Shown piece after piece: positions 30,683-36,643 of a DNA stretch of 64,000 nt (within the stretch, counting starts at the first letter, position 1; the number at the start of each line of letters is the position of its first letter). This stretch comes from an uncultured delta proteobacterium. Its GTDB lineage: Bacteria > Desulfobacterota > Desulfobacteria > Desulfobacterales > Desulfosalsimonadaceae. The DNA lies in the NCBI GenBank assembly GCA_963826785.1, contig CAWGYD010000001.1:96001-160000 (forward strand), written 5' to 3'. The position numbers and the translations under genes were made by a program. Below the pieces are notes generated by a model. That model saw only the letters and a program-made list of their open reading frames with translations, did no database searches and had not been told where the DNA came from.

Positions 30683-31622
30683 TCAGGTCCCTTCCCGGGT
30701 GATGCTCGACGGGGGTTTGTCCCTGCTGAGCCCCTTGAAACTGGGATGGCGCAGCCGTCCGTCTTTGGTCCATTCCGAGAACTCGACATCCCCGACGTAC
30801 TTCGGTGTCACCCAGTGGACATCCTGGGTCGGCACGTCACCGGTTGCAAAAGGGGAAGTCTTGCGTTCATCGCGCAGCAGTTTTCTGCTGATGGAGCGCA
30901 GCATGTCATTGTCATACCCGCTGCCCACCTTGCCGGCATAGCACAGTTGACCATTTTCATAGTAACCCACCAGAAGCGCGCCGAATCCGATGCGGTTTCC
31001 CCTGGGTTCCGTATATCCGCCGATAACGAAATTCTGCCGGCGGGCGGATTTAAAAGAAGTCTTTTCCCGGAAATCGCCATGGGCATCCGGGACGGCAAGG
31101 TCGCAGTCGTCGAAACTCTGCGCGGTTTCCTCGAATCGAAGCGGATCGGTGAAATGAAATATCCGCTTCAGCACGTTTTTCCGGTCCGCCAGCATCAATC
31201 CGGAGATGTCGTATCCATCTGCAAACAGCAGGTCGAATATATAATAAACCGTCTCCGGCGTCTCTGTTGTCCCGTATTCCGGGCCCGGGTCCGGCGGTCT
31301 CGTCGAAAGGGACGATTTGCGCGCCAATGGTCACGATCTTTCCGTCCACAATGAAGTTTTTGCATTCCTGAACGCGCAGCGCTTTCACTAGATGCGGGTA
31401 CTTCTGGTTCAGGTCTTTTCGGCTTCGGGACATGAGCGTCAGATCATTGCCGTTTCGAAATGCCAGGCATCGTTCGCCGTCGAGTTGTTCATATATCCAG
31501 TCCGGATCGGAAAACGGGTCCTGGGCCAGCGTGGCGGACACGGGCTGGGTCCATTCCGAAACCGGTATTTTGCGGATCCTGAACTGTTCGTCTTCAGGAA
31601 TCAGGTTTAACAGATCATTCAT
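30683..31622 (-). pseudogene. Degenerate LigD/LigC-type ATP-dependent DNA ligase (frameshift near 31320; catalytic motifs lost)
   Basis: WIYEQLDGERCL (motif I, Lys missing), IFDLL, and an intact OB domain (FVIGGYTEPRG..GALLVGYY..YAGKVGSG..EWTKDGRLRHPSF). Confidence 0.8.
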
Positions 31623-31809: not shown

Positions 31810-32640
31810 CTAAAGGTGCGTTCCGCAGTATTTGCAGAACGCCGCATCCAGGTCATGGCCTTCAGCGCCGCAGGCCGGGCAGGCCTGGGTGGAGACCGGC
31901 TTTTTCCGGGAAGCTTCCGTCATTTCCACGGTGACGATCCCGGTGGGCACCGCGATGATGCCATACCCCAGAACCATGACCACGCAGGCCAGGGTTTTTC
32001 CCAGGGGGGTCTGGGGGGACAGGTCTCCGTACCCGACGGTGGTGAGCGTGACAATGGACCAGTAAATGCTGGTGGGGATATCGGTAAATCCGTGGGTTTC
32101 GCCTTCGATGACGTACATGACCGATCCGATGAGGATGGTGATGGTGAATACGGCAAACAGAAACACGCTGATCTTGCGGCGGCTGGCTTTGAGCGCACTG
32201 GTGAGGACGTGTGCTTCCCCCAGGTAAGCCGAAAGTTTGAAAACCCTGAAGATGCGCAGGAGGCGGAGAATACGGATGGTGAGCAGGGTCTGGCTGCCGG
32301 GGATGGCGATACTGATGTAGGTGGGGATGACGGCCAGCAGGTCGACGATCCCGAAAAAGGAAATTGCATAGGAAAGGGGCCGCGACACGCTGATCAGCCG
32401 GAGCGCGTATTCCACGGTGAACAGGAGGGTGAAAAACCATTCAATCCCATAGAGGATGCGGCCGTAGGACCGGTGAATGCCGCCGACGCTGTCGAAGATG
32501 ATGGTGGCCACGCTGATGACGATACTGGCAATCAGGATGACGTCAAACGCCTTGCCCGCCGGCGTGTCGGCCTCGAAAATGATTTCGTGCAGTTTGCGCC
32601 GCCAGGGTGCGGTTAACCGGGCGGCGGGTCTGTCGCTCAT
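31810..32640 (-). CDS. Voltage-gated potassium channel-type ion transporter
   Basis: S4 helix RILRLLRIFRVFK, pore signature TTVGYGD and C-terminal CPAC..CKYC. Confidence 0.93.
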   Translation of the reverse strand: MSDRPAARLTAPWRRKLHEIIFEADTPAGKAFDVILIASIVISVATIIFDSVGGIHRSYGRILYGIEWFFTLLFTVEYALRLISVSRPLSYAISFFGIVDLLAVIPTYISIAIPGSQTLLTIRILRLLRIFRVFKLSAYLGEAHVLTSALKASRRKISVFLFAVFTITILIGSVMYVIEGETHGFTDIPTSIYWSIVTLTTVGYGDLSPQTPLGKTLACVVMVLGYGIIAVPTGIVTVEMTEASRKKPVSTQACPACGAEGHDLDAAFCKYCGTHL

Positions 32641-32667: not shown

Positions 32668-33006
32668 TTAATGGTGATGGACACCCTCCGAGTGCCCGCC
32701 GGCAATGATGTAAACCGCTTCATGAGACGAGGGGTTTTCCACGAAAACACTTTGCTCCCCGACAATATGAAAAACTTCTCCTTCGTGCAGGGTGCCCGTG
32801 AATTCACCGGTGAGATGAAGGATCCCCTTTGCGGCCATCACCATTTCCTCGTGCCCTTTGCCGGGTTTGACCAGGCGCTGTTTCTCGCCGGGTTTAAGAT
32901 ATCCGTAAATCATGTAGCAGGCATGGCTGCCGGTGTCCTGAAGGCCGAAAACGGACTCGCCTTCTTTTTCAGCCAGGGCCCGGCTTTTCAGATCGACTTT
33001 TTTCAT
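32668..33006 (-). CDS. Cupin-like protein, last gene of the putative RiPP operon
   Basis: Beta-rich sequence with GHEEMV..GILHL..LHEGEVFHI..VENP cupin-like pattern and a His-rich C-terminus; RBS CAGGAG before the ATG at 33006. Confidence 0.7.
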   Translation of the reverse strand: MKKVDLKSRALAEKEGESVFGLQDTGSHACYMIYGYLKPGEKQRLVKPGKGHEEMVMAAKGILHLTGEFTGTLHEGEVFHIVGEQSVFVENPSSHEAVYIIAGGHSEGVHHH

Positions 33007-33058: not shown

Positions 33059-33981
33059 TCAAGGCGCGATGCATCGGGGATCCGGTGCAGCAAGGTCCCC
33101 GTAAAACTGATAGCTCATGGCCGGGCATCCGCCATGGCAGTGCGCGTGCAGGCTGCAGGTCGTGATCCGGGCACCGGTTTTTCTCAAAGGATTGGAAAAA
33201 CCCGAGGGCCGGGTGCCGCCGGATGTGATCGAAATTATCGGTCAGCAGGTTGCCCAGCCGAAATGCCGGGTACCGGAAGAACAGGTAGCATGGATATACA
33301 TCGCCGTTGGGCAGGACGGATAATTTGGTGGTGCCGGCCGGGCAGCGCCTGGATGCCAGGGAAGGGCAGGTTTGCACATCCGGGATGAACCCGGAGCAGA
33401 ACACGCCGTCAATTCCATTTCTGTTTTTTTTTAACTGCATCATGTGGTGAAAAAAAATGGGAAACGCCACACGGTCCGCAATGTCGGACCTGTCGGCCAG
33501 ATCCCGGTAAATCAGGTACCAGGTGATTCTGTCCATGCCGATGTAGGGGGCCGCCGCAGGCGGTATGGGCGCGTCCGGATAGAAGACGCTTTTCAGGATG
33601 GGCCGCTGATCGAGAATATAATCGTTTAGCGCCCGGCTGATTGGCGTGTCGTTGACGGAGATGCCGATGGTTACAGATGATGCGGGATAGGCGTCGGAAA
33701 GCGCCCTCAGGCGGTCCACCCGGGAGCCGTTTGAACTGACGGTGGTGCGCATGCCGCCGGTGTAAATCGTGTCCACCAGTTTTTCGATGTCCGGGTGCAG
33801 GGTGGGCTCTCCGCCCAGAAGATCGATATGGCCGACACCGGCCGATTTGAGAGAAGATGCCATCCGGGCAAACGCATCGGTTTTTACATCCGGCATACGG
33901 AAAAAGATGCCGGTTGAAGCAGAAATCGCAGGTAAGGTTGCACCGAAGGGTGGGATAGAACTGGATATAGGATAGCGTCAT
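33059..33981 (-). CDS. Radical SAM/SPASM domain protein 2, interrupted by two +1 frameshifts (about 33903 and 33168)
   Basis: CNLTCDFC in frame 1; GGEPTLHP, SSNG and CPAG..LPNGDVYPC..LGNL in frame 2; TCSLHAHCHGGCPA..PDPRC in frame 3, ending at the TGA at 33059. Confidence 0.85.
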
Positions 33982-34044: not shown

Positions 34045-35226
34045 TCAATCAGGCGATTTCAAGTGACTGTTCATCCCATAAACCGCGCACATGACCGGGT
34101 CTACGCCCAGGGGCGACTGGGCTCTGAAACGGCACCCGCCCCGGCATTCGTCTAAAACCGGACAATTGCGGCATTCCAGGCGATCCAGGGGGACATGTTC
34201 CAGGCGGTTCCAGCAGTCGGCCAGTCGGGCCCGGGCATCCCCCAGGGGTTCATCGCGGTAAAAACCGCATTTGACGGCATTGCCGTCGGGAAGGACGGTC
34301 ATCAGGTGGCGGCCGCAGGCATACCCCCCCGATGATCCGTGATAGCCGCCGCCGAAGGCATATGGGAACAGGCCGGCGGCCCGGTCATAGGGGACGGTCA
34401 GGTCCCGGTTAGACTCGAGTGAACCGGTGACCGACAGCACATCGATGCCCCATTCCACAGCCCCCACCTCTTCGATGAATGCCTGCATGGGATCAAATTC
34501 ATCCAGGTTGTCCCGGTGGATCATGGTGGATATGGAAACCGGGATGCCTGCTTTACGGGCGATGCGGATACCGTTTACCGTTCGTTCAAAGGTCCCGGCT
34601 CCCCGCAATGCCTCATGCCCCCGGGTCCATCCGTCCAGGCTGAACTGAATTTCATCGGCGTTTTGCAGCCATTTAGCGTTTTCTGCGGTGACCCGGGTCC
34701 CGTTGGTGAACAGCACCCGGCGGATGCCCAGGTTCCGGGTTTCTTCCAAAAAAAATTGCAGGTCCGGATGGAGCAGGGGTTCGCCGCCGGAGATGAGCAG
34801 CCGCAGCCCGCCCATCTCGGCAAATTGCCCCGTGATGCGCAATGCGTCATCGATGGGCAGCATCGCGGGCCGGGCCGGCCCCAGGTAGCAGTGCCGGCAT
34901 TTGAGATTGCACTGGTGCAGCAGGTGAAGCTCCAGGTACCGAAGCGATGGAATCGGACTCCGTGCGGCCGTTATGTTGATGGGTTCGGGGGCATTCAGCG
35001 CTTCTAAAATCCCTTCGGACAGTGCGTAACGGACGAATTCATCGTCATCCGTGAGTTCTTCCCCCGTGCGCCCGCCGGTGCAGCGCAACAGGAAATCGAG
35101 TGCGGATGAATCGATCTCATAGAGTTCGTCGCGCCCGATATGGTAGATAAAAGGCGTCTCCAGGACTTTGAGGGAGGCATCGGAAGACAGCCGCAGGTAG
35201 GAGCGGCGCCAGTCAGCTGGGATCAT
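34045..35226 (-). CDS. Radical SAM/SPASM domain protein 1 with putative N-terminal RiPP recognition element
   Basis: CNLKCRHC, SGGEPLLHP, FTNG and FSLDG; SPASM Cys set CG..KCGF..CRNCPVLDECRGGC..DPVMC; ~90-aa N-terminal three-strand plus helices segment. Confidence 0.92.
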   Translation of the reverse strand: MIPADWRRSYLRLSSDASLKVLETPFIYHIGRDELYEIDSSALDFLLRCTGGRTGEELTDDDEFVRYALSEGILEALNAPEPINITAARSPIPSLRYLELHLLHQCNLKCRHCYLGPARPAMLPIDDALRITGQFAEMGGLRLLISGGEPLLHPDLQFFLEETRNLGIRRVLFTNGTRVTAENAKWLQNADEIQFSLDGWTRGHEALRGAGTFERTVNGIRIARKAGIPVSISTMIHRDNLDEFDPMQAFIEEVGAVEWGIDVLSVTGSLESNRDLTVPYDRAAGLFPYAFGGGYHGSSGGYACGRHLMTVLPDGNAVKCGFYRDEPLGDARARLADCWNRLEHVPLDRLECRNCPVLDECRGGCRFRAQSPLGVDPVMCAVYGMNSHLKSPD

Positions 35227-35582
35227 TTTGAATCTTCCAGCATCTGCTTGTCCAAGAGGCCGTGTTTAAGGAGCAGATAAACGGCGATGTAGCCCCCGCA
35301 GGGTTCCGGATTTTCCGTTTCCGGGAGTTCGGATTGAAAATCGCAGTCTTTTTCCTTGAAATCGCAAAGGGCGCACACCTGTTCATCCAGCAGACCCCGA
35401 TGCCCTTCCCAGGTGTCGACGGTCTTGGGCAGATGCGCCACCGTCTCTTGCCGGATTTGGTATCTTTCCATGAGAGCCTGGGCCACCAGCGCCCCCCGGC
35501 AGGTCATTTCCTCTTTCTCTCCGGCTTTGAAATAGGTGCAGAAGGGGCGGCAGAGGTAATCGATATAATCTGTTTTGGGCAT
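35223..35582 (-). CDS. Cys-rich hypothetical protein (7 Cys)
   Basis: CRPFC..TC..CALC..DC..PCGG; stop overlaps the rSAM start (ATGA coupling). Confidence 0.8.
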   Translation of the reverse strand: MPKTDYIDYLCRPFCTYFKAGEKEEMTCRGALVAQALMERYQIRQETVAHLPKTVDTWEGHRGLLDEQVCALCDFKEKDCDFQSELPETENPEPCGGYIAVYLLLKHGLLDKQMLEDSK

Positions 35583-35608
35583 GAAATAACTTTGATTCCG
35601 TCAAAATA

Positions 35609-35642
35609 CGCAGCCCGCATGCGGAATGCATGACGGGCTGCG
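35609..35642 (-). terminator. GC-rich stem-loop between the peptide gene and the modifying-enzyme genes (leaky terminator or mRNA stabiliser)
   Basis: CGCAGCCCG/CGGGCTGCG outer stem plus CATGC/GCATG inner stem; followed on the minus strand by an interrupted T tract (TATTTTG). Confidence 0.65.
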
Positions 35643-35661
35643 GGGAATTGATTGATTCTGA

Positions 35662-35724
35662 TCAGCAGGAACGTTTACACTTGCAAAGACCGGTGGGTGC
35701 TTTTTTGACTTTTTTAATTTTCAT
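35662..35724 (-). CDS. Putative RiPP precursor peptide MKIKKVKKAPTGLCKCKRSC (20 aa)
   Basis: Manual translation; RBS GAAAGGAG 8 nt before the ATG; first ORF behind a strong promoter and directly upstream of the rSAM/SPASM genes. Confidence 0.8.
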   Translation of the reverse strand: MKIKKVKKAPTGLCKCKRSC

Positions 35725-35837
35725 GGCAGCTTCTCCTTTCTTCGTGAAAGTGTTGTGGAAAATCGACATGTCTGCTTATTTTGCATTTGGCGGAATTCTC
35801 CCGTCAAACGCTTTTCGTGTTCATCACGAATTAATAC

Positions 35838-35866
35838 ATTTTATCAGCTGAAAATGACTTTGTCAA
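35838..35866 (-). promoter_or_regulatory. Sigma70-type promoter for the peptide/rSAM operon
   Basis: The minus strand reads TTGACA-17 nt-TAAAAT, with an extended -10 TGn. Confidence 0.75.
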
Positions 35867-36103
35867 TCATATAGCCGGAATTGTTCGACATCATCGTTTT
35901 GCGCCCTGTGCGTTTAAAAGCGCATGCAGTCTGTAAAAGAGGATAATACGATAATCATCAGCCGCGCGATTGCAAATCGGCTGCTTTCAATTTTTCGAAA
36001 GATATCTGGCCCCGCTGCAGGGAAAAGCGGCAACGGGCCCCCGTTTTGGAGGCTGCGGAGACGATGGAATACGGGGCCAGGCGGCATGCGCGAAAAGCGG
36101 TTT

Positions 36104-36643
36104 CTATAGTCTGATCATGGGCAGCGGCCGGAACGGGTCATGCATTGCCCACGAAAGCGCCAGTTCGGTCAGGCGCCGGTGAAACCCGGCCCGGGGAAAA
36201 GTGCAAAGCAGGTTCTTGAAGTACGAAGGCGGAAACCGGGAAGGAAATTGAAACAGGCAGACATCCAGCCAATCCGCACGGCGGAAGGCCTCCACCAGTT
36301 TGGGTCGGCGTCCCCGGTACGGGGTCAGTTTGTGGTGGTGCAGAATCATGCACCGGATTTCGTCTTTCCAGAACCCCCGGTGGGAGCGATCCAGAAATGC
36401 ACTGGCCCGGTTTACAGAAGGGTTAAGATAGTCGAAGGTCTGATCGGTCCAGATGCCGATATCGTGAAAAGCGGCGGCCACGGCGAGTTTTTCGATTTCG
36501 GTGGCATCTGCGCGGGCATATGCGACGGCGATGTTGAATACCCGGCAGGCGTGATTCTTATAAGCCGTAAAATCATTTTTCAAATCATCGTGCCACTGCT
36601 CAAACAGGTGATCGATGAGGCGATGGCCCTTGATGGTCTTCAT
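36104..36643 (-). CDS. HD-domain protein
   Basis: YKNHACRV, AAAFHDIGIW, HHHK and FRRADWLDV motifs. Confidence 0.8.
   Translation of the reverse strand: MKTIKGHRLIDHLFEQWHDDLKNDFTAYKNHACRVFNIAVAYARADATEIEKLAVAAAFHDIGIWTDQTFDYLNPSVNRASAFLDRSHRGFWKDEIRCMILHHHKLTPYRGRRPKLVEAFRRADWLDVCLFQFPSRFPPSYFKNLLCTFPRAGFHRRLTELALSWAMHDPFRPLPMIRL

Follow-up and report, generated by a model that had tools for sequence, protein, structure and literature searches.

A 20-codon cysteine-containing peptide gene accompanying a radical SAM enzyme in anaerobes of two phyla, a candidate precursor of a likely metal-binding product

The DNA analyzed here, called the window, is the whole stretch of 64,000 nucleotides from an uncultured delta proteobacterium of the Desulfobacterales (assembly GCA_963826785.1, contig CAWGYD010000001.1, positions 96,001 to 160,000 of the forward strand). 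An initial annotation, made from the letters alone, had pointed to a short open reading frame (ORF) with an ATG at 35724, a TGA at 35662 and a ribosome-binding site 8 nt upstream, all of which are present on the minus strand. This ORF is the first gene of a minus-strand row in which it is followed by the genes for a 119-residue protein (p119), a radical S-adenosylmethionine (SAM) enzyme (rSAM1), a second radical SAM protein (rSAM2) and a cupin-like protein. Across two phyla, conservation covers the gene, its Shine-Dalgarno sequence, its exact length and the C-terminal C-K-C-x-x-S/T-C-stop of its product, and the gene's occurrence follows that of rSAM1. The peptide gene, its flanking elements and the enzyme gene are as follows, RRE standing for the recognition element of enzymes that mature peptides made by ribosomes and modified after translation (RiPPs).

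35662..35724, minus strand: peptide gene, 20 codons plus TGA, MKIKKVKKAPTGLCKCKRSC (ATG 35724-35722, TGA 35664-35662)
within 35662..35724, minus strand: putative basic leader (about residues 1-12) and core C14-K15-C16-x-x-S19-C20
35733..35750, minus strand: conserved 5' motif CTTTCACGAAGAAAGGAG, including the Shine-Dalgarno sequence GAAAGGAG (35740-35733)
35838..35866, minus strand: sigma-70-like promoter by consensus match, TTGACA (35866-35861), 17 nt, TG-TAAAAT (35843-35838)
35601..35642, minus strand: intrinsic-terminator-like GC-rich hairpin (35642-35609) and T-tract (35608-35601), between the peptide and enzyme genes
34045..35226, minus strand: rSAM1, 393 amino acids, with an RRE-like N-terminal domain (about residues 1-90), a radical SAM core CX3CX2C (C106/C110/C113) and a SPASM-type Cys region

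Conservation of the peptide gene and its flanking elements

An 8-nt spacer, AAGCTGCC, separates GAAAGGAG from the ATG of the peptide gene. Nineteen ORFs of at least 20 amino acids overlap positions 35500-36200 and such a small ORF is unremarkable by itself; the peptide ORF was taken as a gene because its conservation exceeds chance, which its size does not. When 40 related genomes were searched with rSAM1 alone, 9 full-length orthologs (58-67% identity) were recovered. A 20-codon ORF of the same type, with a Shine-Dalgarno sequence and a stop codon directly after the last Cys, was found upstream of p119 in 8 of these 9 loci, that is in all 8 informative ones. The ninth locus (L009) was dropped, its first ~215 nt being a perfect palindrome at the contig end; this long inverted repeat (positions 1-215) ends about 15 nt before p119 and resembles a fold-back assembly artefact. 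In these loci p119 is 38-48% identical, yet the peptide varies at 1-4 positions, and the codon alignment of the orthologous loci displays third-position changes at almost every codon, all three stop codons being used. A longer reading of 35 amino acids from an ATG at 35769 is open in the window but was rejected: relatives show stops or unrelated sequence, the 20-codon form being constant.

Scanning 185,579 species genomes with a degenerate DNA pattern for TGLCKCKxSC yielded 45 matches in 43 loci, nearly all from metagenome-assembled genomes of Desulfobacterales, and each match was the in-frame C-terminal end of a peptide ORF followed by an immediate stop. Forty-four of these copies (one further match being cut by a contig start) and the window copy formed a set of 45 sequences. 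The start codon lies exactly 20 codons before the stop in 43 of them (38 ATG, 4 TTG and 1 GTG); the remaining two are an 18-residue variant and a copy frameshifted in a poly-A run. Pairwise synonymous (pS) and nonsynonymous (pN) divergence were 0.64 and 0.098 (pN/pS 0.15), with synonymous sites near saturation, and pN/pS was 0.28 for codons 2-10, which were unconstrained by the search pattern. The codon-level conservation that the initial annotation had named as a check was thus borne out, both by the third-position changes and by the pN/pS of 0.15. The full set comprises 67 distinct peptides in 96 loci, with a mean net charge of +6.7. Positions M1, I3, K5, C14, K15, C16 and C20 are invariant and residue 19 is Ser in 66 of the 67 and Thr in the other, in a set collected with an expression in which length and Cys spacing were fixed; looser expressions elsewhere gave no other lengths.

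None of 19 peptide variants was present in an exact look-up in a collection of 15 billion proteins. NCBIfam returned no family for 7 variants at E values up to 10, Pfam had none for the peptide, and no curated family or database protein was found for it. On this comparative sequence evidence, the 63-nt ORF is to be regarded as a real gene under purifying selection, hitherto unannotated and possibly missed by gene callers on account of its length of 63 nt. A loss of the ORF, ribosome-binding site and Cys spacing in relatives that keep the downstream genes, which the initial annotation had singled out as speaking against its proposal, was not observed: length, ribosome-binding site and C-x-C-x3-C are kept together with the enzyme.

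The flanking elements are conserved to various degrees. The promoter has 11 of 12 consensus matches and an extended -10 TG, 2 sites being found in the region against 0.5 expected in shuffles. In the alignment of the 9 orthologous loci the block CTTTCAnGAAGAAAG is nearly invariant, and distant loci have an AGGAGG-type Shine-Dalgarno sequence 6-10 nt upstream of the peptide start. An 18-nt block, CTTTCAnGAAGAAAGGAG, located at 35733-35750 of the window and at the equivalent place in L002-L010, is almost invariant in Desulfobacterales loci. Within it, CTTTC and GAAAG can pair into a 5-bp stem over part of the Shine-Dalgarno sequence, and RNAfold forms this stem before second tandem copies; the stem may be a candidate translational control element, one that offers no covariation to test it by.

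The hairpin begins 19 nt after the peptide ORF and has a folding energy of -32.4 kcal/mol in the window. An equivalent hairpin occurs in nearly all loci sharing the gene order of the window (type A), and 8 of its 12 consensus pairs display compensatory changes among 27 sequences. The hairpin of the minus strand went unflagged by a simple terminator scanner, and its call rests on folding and covariation. In three loci (L058, L063 and L095) tandem peptide genes lie about 70-100 nt apart and differ by a few residues (for example K17-R18 versus K17-H18), with the hairpin only behind the second copy. A search of positions 35400-36200 against Rfam gave just a chance-level snoRNA match (E 0.93). The promoter and the hairpin would be consistent with a precursor transcript that is short and abundant, some transcription reading through into the enzyme genes.

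Association of the peptide with rSAM1

Among the 43 loci found with the pattern, p119 lies directly downstream of the peptide gene in 39 and rSAM1 in 38. The phylum of the window, the Thermodesulfobacteriota, was surveyed with rSAM1 as anchor in 401 sampled genomes, 45 of which (including the window's own) carry a full-length homolog at E<=1e-50. The 47 places obtained were reduced to 40 loci by omitting 2 that were already known and the 5 weakest or partial ones (G316, G315:C81, G065, G288 and G105). A 20-codon ORF of the form M-x-I-K/R-K-V/I-x-K/R-x5-C-K-C-x-x-S/T-C-stop was held by 37 of the 40; as for the three misses, one contig starts at the enzyme and the other two genomes carry the peptide gene on another contig. 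Counted by genome the peptide was present in 38 of 39, and each of the 41 copies of this survey is a 20-codon ORF with an ATG start, preceded at 6-10 nt by an AGGAGG-type site. The same link was seen in Nitrospirota, where rSAM1 was found in 83 of 201 sampled genomes and a peptide pattern fixing only I3, K5, C14-K15-C16, S19, C20 and the stop in 78, the reversed pattern being found in none of the 201. Both were present in 77 genomes, rSAM1 only in 6 (one cut by a contig end), the peptide only in 1 and neither in 117. About 4 of 10 sampled Nitrospirota genomes and about 1 of 10 sampled Thermodesulfobacteriota genomes thus carry rSAM1.

Two gene orders were distinguished. Type A, that of the window, reads peptide, p119, rSAM1, sometimes rSAM2, and cupin. 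In type B, rSAM1 comes first and the peptide gene follows about 80 nt later. A full p119 or cupin is missing there; in 4 loci, a 79-residue protein related to p119's N-terminal half is encoded upstream. Since rSAM1 and the peptide are the sole conserved pair in type B loci, they appear to be the minimal system. In several genomes the peptide gene is located on another contig or 51 kb from rSAM1, and genomes with free-standing peptide copies still carry rSAM1. One orphan copy (L045, genome G043) has kept the 5' motif and the terminator, is frameshifted in a poly-A run and resembles a decaying remnant; neither p119 nor rSAM1 is encoded close by, and at E<=1e-30 the genome yielded no rSAM1.

The enzyme has a Radical_SAM domain (PF04055, E 2.5e-24), and C106, C110 and C113 are invariant in 39 sequences. 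The C-terminal residues C304, C320, C352, C355, C361, C365 and C380, which include a CX2CX5CX3C motif, are invariant as well. Its best sequence match in the PDB is SkfB (E 4.9e-22), and its relatives, 2105 cluster representatives at E<=1e-40, bear generic names only ('radical SAM protein'). The AlphaFold model has a predicted local distance difference test (pLDDT) score of 89.4; its N-terminal domain consists of four to five strands and three helices, with the strands at residues 10-37 and the three helices above 90. The structural neighbours of this model are the RiPP maturases SuiB, SkfB, CteB and TigE, and the fold aligns with SuiB and anSME through residue 386. SkfB aligned over 329 residues (model residues 15-374, Z 26.3, root-mean-square deviation 4.9) and SuiB over 344 (model residues 11-386, Z 25.3, root-mean-square deviation 3.8); only these two alignments cover the N-terminal domain, all others starting near residue 91. 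According to the model, rSAM1 has the predicted fold of RRE-containing RiPP maturases.

The three molecules rSAM1, p119 and the peptide were co-folded, an alignment being supplied for each and the peptide serving as the partner that was scored. The score was 0.83, the best of 3 controls reaching 0.01, and the mark applied is reached by 116 of 157 solved complexes and by 2 of 215 mismatched pairs. The runs share at least 60% of their contacts and the pLDDT of the partner is 60-64. Peptide residues 1-12 are predicted to contact rSAM1 residues 26-27, 33-39 (an invariant DELYE strand), 41-45 and 59-71, and residues 15-16 to contact 260-262, 290-298, 320 and 360-365, near the auxiliary-cluster Cys. 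No confident contact between peptide and p119 was listed, which is uninformative either way. The initial annotation had suggested a co-prediction of the peptide with the N-terminal domain of rSAM1, and it is on that domain that residues 1-12 were placed, by prediction only. The co-fold thus supports binding of the peptide to the recognition domain of rSAM1, at the level of a predicted structure. As to the earlier view of a leader-plus-core precursor, its architecture is upheld by the conservation, the RiPP-maturase fold and the co-fold; the role of the three Cys as modification or metal-binding sites is one that we still infer.

Predicted maturation, metal-related neighbours and rival explanations

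Many Nitrospirota genomes have a second, unlinked peptide copy ending CKCH.SC (C-K-C-H-x-S-C). Twelve such loci (L120-L131), all from genomes carrying rSAM1, were examined. A heavy-metal P1B-type ATPase lies within about 3.5 kb in 7 of the 12 (5 confirmed as YHS + HMA/HMBD + E1-E2 ATPase), a YHS-fused disulfide oxidoreductase is found in 4, and MerR, a DsbD-like protein and FeoB occur together in one. Weak SRPBCC-like proteins also adjoin these loci. Upstream of the system, an SO_0444-family Cu/Zn efflux transporter (396.6 bits, cut-off 300) was found in 4 type A loci and a DUF364/DUF4213 'putative heavy-metal chelation' protein in 8 Desulfobacterales loci. The free-standing copy L039 is convergent with genes which, from their translations, we take to resemble hypB and hypA. 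Such contexts, seen repeatedly in independent lineages, have metals in common and suggest that the product binds metal.

Taken as a whole, we consider it probable that the peptide gene is a real gene whose product is a substrate of rSAM1 and a RiPP-type precursor giving rise to a product likely to bind metal. The basic half of the peptide, M-x-I-K/R-K-V/I-x-K (residues 1-12), is predicted to lie as a strand against the invariant D33-E34-L35-Y36-E37 strand and helix 3 of the N-terminal domain of rSAM1, a docking by which the core would be directed to the region of the SAM and the auxiliary clusters. There, rSAM1 would abstract a hydrogen atom in the core, and a Cys sulfur would most likely be joined to a carbon of Ser/Thr19 (or Lys15) in a ranthipeptide- or sactipeptide-like thioether. 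The result would be a small, strongly cationic peptide with remaining thiols. Its own promoter and the leaky-terminator-like hairpin would provide more precursor than enzyme; p119, with its 7 Cys, and the His-tailed cupin are likely partners of rSAM1, and rSAM2 may be an optional second tailoring enzyme. Known radical SAM-SPASM enzymes with an RRE make thioethers on Cys-rich cores. By analogy, a thioether from Cys to Ser/Thr19 (or Lys15) is our favourite, because of the precedent of this enzyme class and of the ranthipeptides and because of the placement of the residues, Ser/Thr19 being three residues after C16 and adjacent to C20 and K15 standing between two Cys. In ranthipeptides, according to PMC8326336, a Thr, Asn or Asp located a few residues away from the donor Cys accepts the thioether. 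A metal-binding peptide serving metal homeostasis in anaerobes, and not an antibiotic, is favoured, given the lack of a conserved protease or exporter and the metal-efflux genes that adjoin paralogous copies and some clusters. We propose more tentatively, as a possibility open to considerable doubt, that the product is an oxygen-independent ribosomal metal chelator or chaperone, the counterpart in anaerobes of bufferins and methanobactins, of which extra copies lie in Cu, Zn or heavy-metal efflux operons.

The main rival on chemistry is the conversion of the Cys into metal-chelating heterocycles of the thiooxazole type, an oxygen-independent radical SAM route to a bufferin- or methanobactin-like chelator. 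The metal-efflux neighbours would suit it, bufferins being described in PMC11626156 as RiPP metallophores with Cys-derived 5-thiooxazoles for copper stress, and PMC12538549 cites a radical SAM route that leads to thio(seleno)oxazoles (SbtM). TIGR04082 (SbtM) is indeed among the NCBIfam matches of rSAM1, but at 70.7 bits (66.6 for the Nitrospirota ortholog) against a cut-off of 350 it is not the closest one, and the nearest relatives by sequence and fold are the thioether former SkfB and the C-C bond former SuiB; we therefore see this chemistry as unlikely, with a modest chance of being right. The chance is slim that the same precursor and maturase instead yield a peptide-derived redox cofactor like pyrroloquinoline quinone (PQQ) or mycofactocin, from a core excised and used inside the cell. 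A tiny, extremely conserved, usually single-copy precursor with a strict C-terminus and no conserved exporter follows the logic of PqqA and MftA, and PqqE and MftC are among the weak family matches of rSAM1, but their scores (71.6 bits for a cut-off of 381 and 79.6 bits for a cut-off of 265) fall short. Moreover, no peptidase or candidate cofactor-dependent enzyme is conserved nearby, the core does not contain the aromatic or acidic residues of known cofactor precursors, and the metal-gene neighbours would go unexplained.

Three other explanations do without a modified metal ligand. The three thiols might bind metal as translated, in a micro-metalloprotein or metallochaperone that neighbours rSAM1 for another reason, as the free-standing copies away from the enzyme (L049, L039 by the hypB/hypA-like genes, and the CKCH paralogs by ATPases) could suggest; we hold this to be improbable, given that the genomes with such copies still carry rSAM1, that co-occurrence is 77:6:1:117, that conservation of the N-terminal half coincides with the stretch that the recognition domain is predicted to hold, and that peptide and rSAM1 are all that type B loci conserve. 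An exported cationic antimicrobial peptide from a sactipeptide-like pathway would account for the mean net charge and for the presence of the bacteriocin maturase SkfB among the closest enzymes. We regard such a bacteriocin as very improbable, since no transporter, immunity or protease gene is conserved and the sequence, unlike that of arms-race peptides, is nearly fixed across two phyla; an equivalent argument is made for SCIFF (six Cys within 45 residues) peptides in PMC8326336. The short ORF followed 19 nt on by a conserved terminator-like hairpin, upstream of an operon, also recalls attenuation, in which translation of a Lys/Cys-rich leader peptide would control the hairpin and the downstream genes in cis. 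To this we give hardly any credence: it is the amino-acid sequence and not merely the codon content that is conserved, the gene is downstream of rSAM1 in type B, and where it stands on another contig or 51 kb away no cis action can take place.

Several points weigh against a peptide matured by rSAM1 into a metal ligand. Six Nitrospirota genomes have rSAM1 without the peptide and one has the peptide without rSAM1, and the related genomes behind all these counts are non-independent samples. Peptide copies exist far from any maturase gene (L039, L049 and the CKCH paralogs) and might act unmodified. Twenty residues are very short for a leader and a core, and the neighbour surveys of type A and type B loci revealed no conserved protease or exporter/transporter, which is atypical for RiPPs. 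The metal-related neighbours belong to a minority of loci and mostly to the paralog rather than to the window-type copy. On the enzyme side, Pfam SPASM does not attain E 0.01 on rSAM1, and the PqqD hidden Markov model (HMM) matches the N-terminal domain at just E 0.098 in one of three orthologs, a match so weak that the RRE assignment rests on the predicted fold. Neither rSAM1 (best 91 bits, for a model needing 500) nor its Nitrospirota ortholog reaches any NCBIfam cut-off, and therefore no chemistry can be transferred to rSAM1. The co-fold lies outside its calibration, with a partner below 30 residues and the author's own alignments, and since solved leader-RRE complexes exist its pass may reflect likeness to them. 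Finally, rSAM2 is frameshifted in the genome of the window.

Among known systems, the closest in logic is SCIFF with its maturase, the closest in fold are SkfB and SuiB, and the closest in possible function are the bufferins. SCIFF peptides and other ranthipeptides (CteA-CteB, Tte1186a-Tte1186) likewise are small Cys-rich peptides conserved lineage-wide in anaerobes, with one RRE-radical SAM-SPASM enzyme and no obvious exporter, and CteB is among the fold matches of rSAM1 (Z 21.7-22.0). For SCIFF, PMC8326336 gives as thioether acceptor a Thr at a distance of a few residues to the donor Cys. The present peptide differs by its 20 residues and 3 Cys, versus about 45 residues and 6 Cys, and by the lack of any peptide HMM match. 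TIGR03974 (cut-off 425 bits) is not among the best 25 NCBIfam matches of rSAM1, reaching 29.5 bits on a piece of rSAM2; the present system occurs in Thermodesulfobacteriota and Nitrospirota with the extra partners p119 and cupin, whereas SCIFF occurs in Clostridia. The sporulation killing factor, a sactipeptide (SkfA-SkfB), shares with it the best PDB sequence match and the best fold match spanning the N-terminal domain, in an enzyme that forms Cys thioethers. However, the Nitrospirota ortholog reaches 62.9 bits for TIGR04403, whose cut-off is 300, the precursor is unrelated and the present loci have no cyclisation or export machinery. With the streptide system (SuiA-SuiB) the three-domain fold is common over rSAM1 residues 11-386, as is the predicted docking of the leader on the RRE, where the leader is reportedly bound in the SuiB-SuiA crystal. 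SuiB makes a Lys-Trp C-C bond, whereas the present core has no aromatic residue, and identity is 18-19%. PqqA-PqqE/PqqD and MftA-MftC/MftB resemble it by a very short conserved precursor, a radical SAM-SPASM enzyme needing a peptide-recognition domain and a product kept in the cell, but the family cut-offs are missed, the core residues differ and neither a peptidase nor a downstream tailoring set is found here. The likeness to bufferins, widespread Cys-based ribosomal peptides tied to metal-stress genes according to PMC11626156, is a functional analogy only, given that these depend on an oxygen-dependent MNIO (multinuclear non-heme iron oxidative enzyme, DUF692), a DUF2063 protein and a Sec signal peptide. 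Neither DUF692 nor DUF2063 is among the families of the 9 operon and neighbour proteins scanned, and a 20-residue peptide is too short for a signal peptide.

No paper on this peptide/rSAM1 system was found in the literature, supplements being outside the search. The system is likely to be an undescribed radical SAM RiPP system, widespread in anaerobic bacteria and probably dealing with metals. If this is true, an entire peptide family with a dedicated radical SAM enzyme has escaped annotation, one carried often by two phyla of environmentally important anaerobes. With a 20-residue substrate and one enzyme, it would represent a compact test case in which Cys, Lys or Ser may undergo new radical SAM chemistry, with two partner proteins without known fold or family on offer. 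It also makes testable an idea of how soft metals could be buffered or trafficked by strict anaerobes with no need of oxygen-dependent enzymes. The case further shows that an orphan RRE-containing enzyme is a reliable anchor for finding genes of 63 nt.

Accessory genes and surroundings

The other genes considered in the window, in their order along the minus strand, are listed below.

35223..35582, minus strand: p119, 119-residue all-helical protein with 7 invariant Cys, without known family or fold
33059..33981, minus strand: rSAM2, second radical SAM/SPASM gene without RRE, with two frameshifts, near 33900 and near 33163
32668..33006, minus strand: cupin-like protein, 112 amino acids, ending GGHSEGVHHH, present in 32 of 44 loci
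31810-32640, minus strand: voltage-gated-type ion channel (Ion_trans, E 3e-32) with a zinc-ribbon/DUF7575 C-terminal tail, directly downstream of the cupin gene

The invariant Cys of p119 are C11, C15, C28, C70, C73, C80 and C95, and its all-helical model is of moderate confidence (pLDDT 79). No Pfam or NCBIfam family was found for it; Foldseek gave no match at E<=0.001, the best Z in a wide VIA search was 4.3, the ESM Atlas gave only unnamed clusters, and a NAT_N match at E 0.018 was ignored as too weak. The p119 family counts 243 representatives at E<=0.001, among which are two fusions of p119 to an rSAM1 ortholog (P0192 and P0211, 505-506 residues, 44% identity over 379 residues) and one of p119 to the cupin (P0262, 233 residues, 43% identity). 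Because of these natural fusions, p119 and the cupin are likely to act with rSAM1. The cupin-like protein has H28, C30, H52, E53, E54, H105, H110 and H112 as invariant candidate metal ligands and a His-rich tail. Cupin_2 matched at E 0.019 only, in one ortholog, and no PDB sequence matched at E<=1.

Two single-base shifts, the first in a T5/A5-rich stretch near 33900, the second near 33163, divide the rSAM2 gene among three frames; its pieces are about 50% identical to intact orthologs and contain no in-frame stops. Many relatives have an intact copy; of the Desulfobacterales loci, 8 lack the gene and 2 carry it truncated, and it was detected in 1 of the 40 more distant loci (L067). Being absent or truncated in so many loci, it is considered optional, and no link between its presence and the residues of the peptide was seen by eye. 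The frameshifts could be due to recent decay, the gene being lost in several relatives, or to an assembly error. At 30683-31622 on the minus strand, two overlapping ORFs (190 and 214 amino acids) are presumably the two halves of one ATP-dependent DNA-ligase-like gene, and this split close to rSAM2 makes assembly indels possible. The genes lying farther away, namely those for the ion channel, an HD protein and a Usp protein, are not conserved beside the system. In one relative (L031), about 3.2 kb with unrelated ORFs separate a 58-residue p119 remnant from rSAM1, possibly as the result of a mobile-element insertion.

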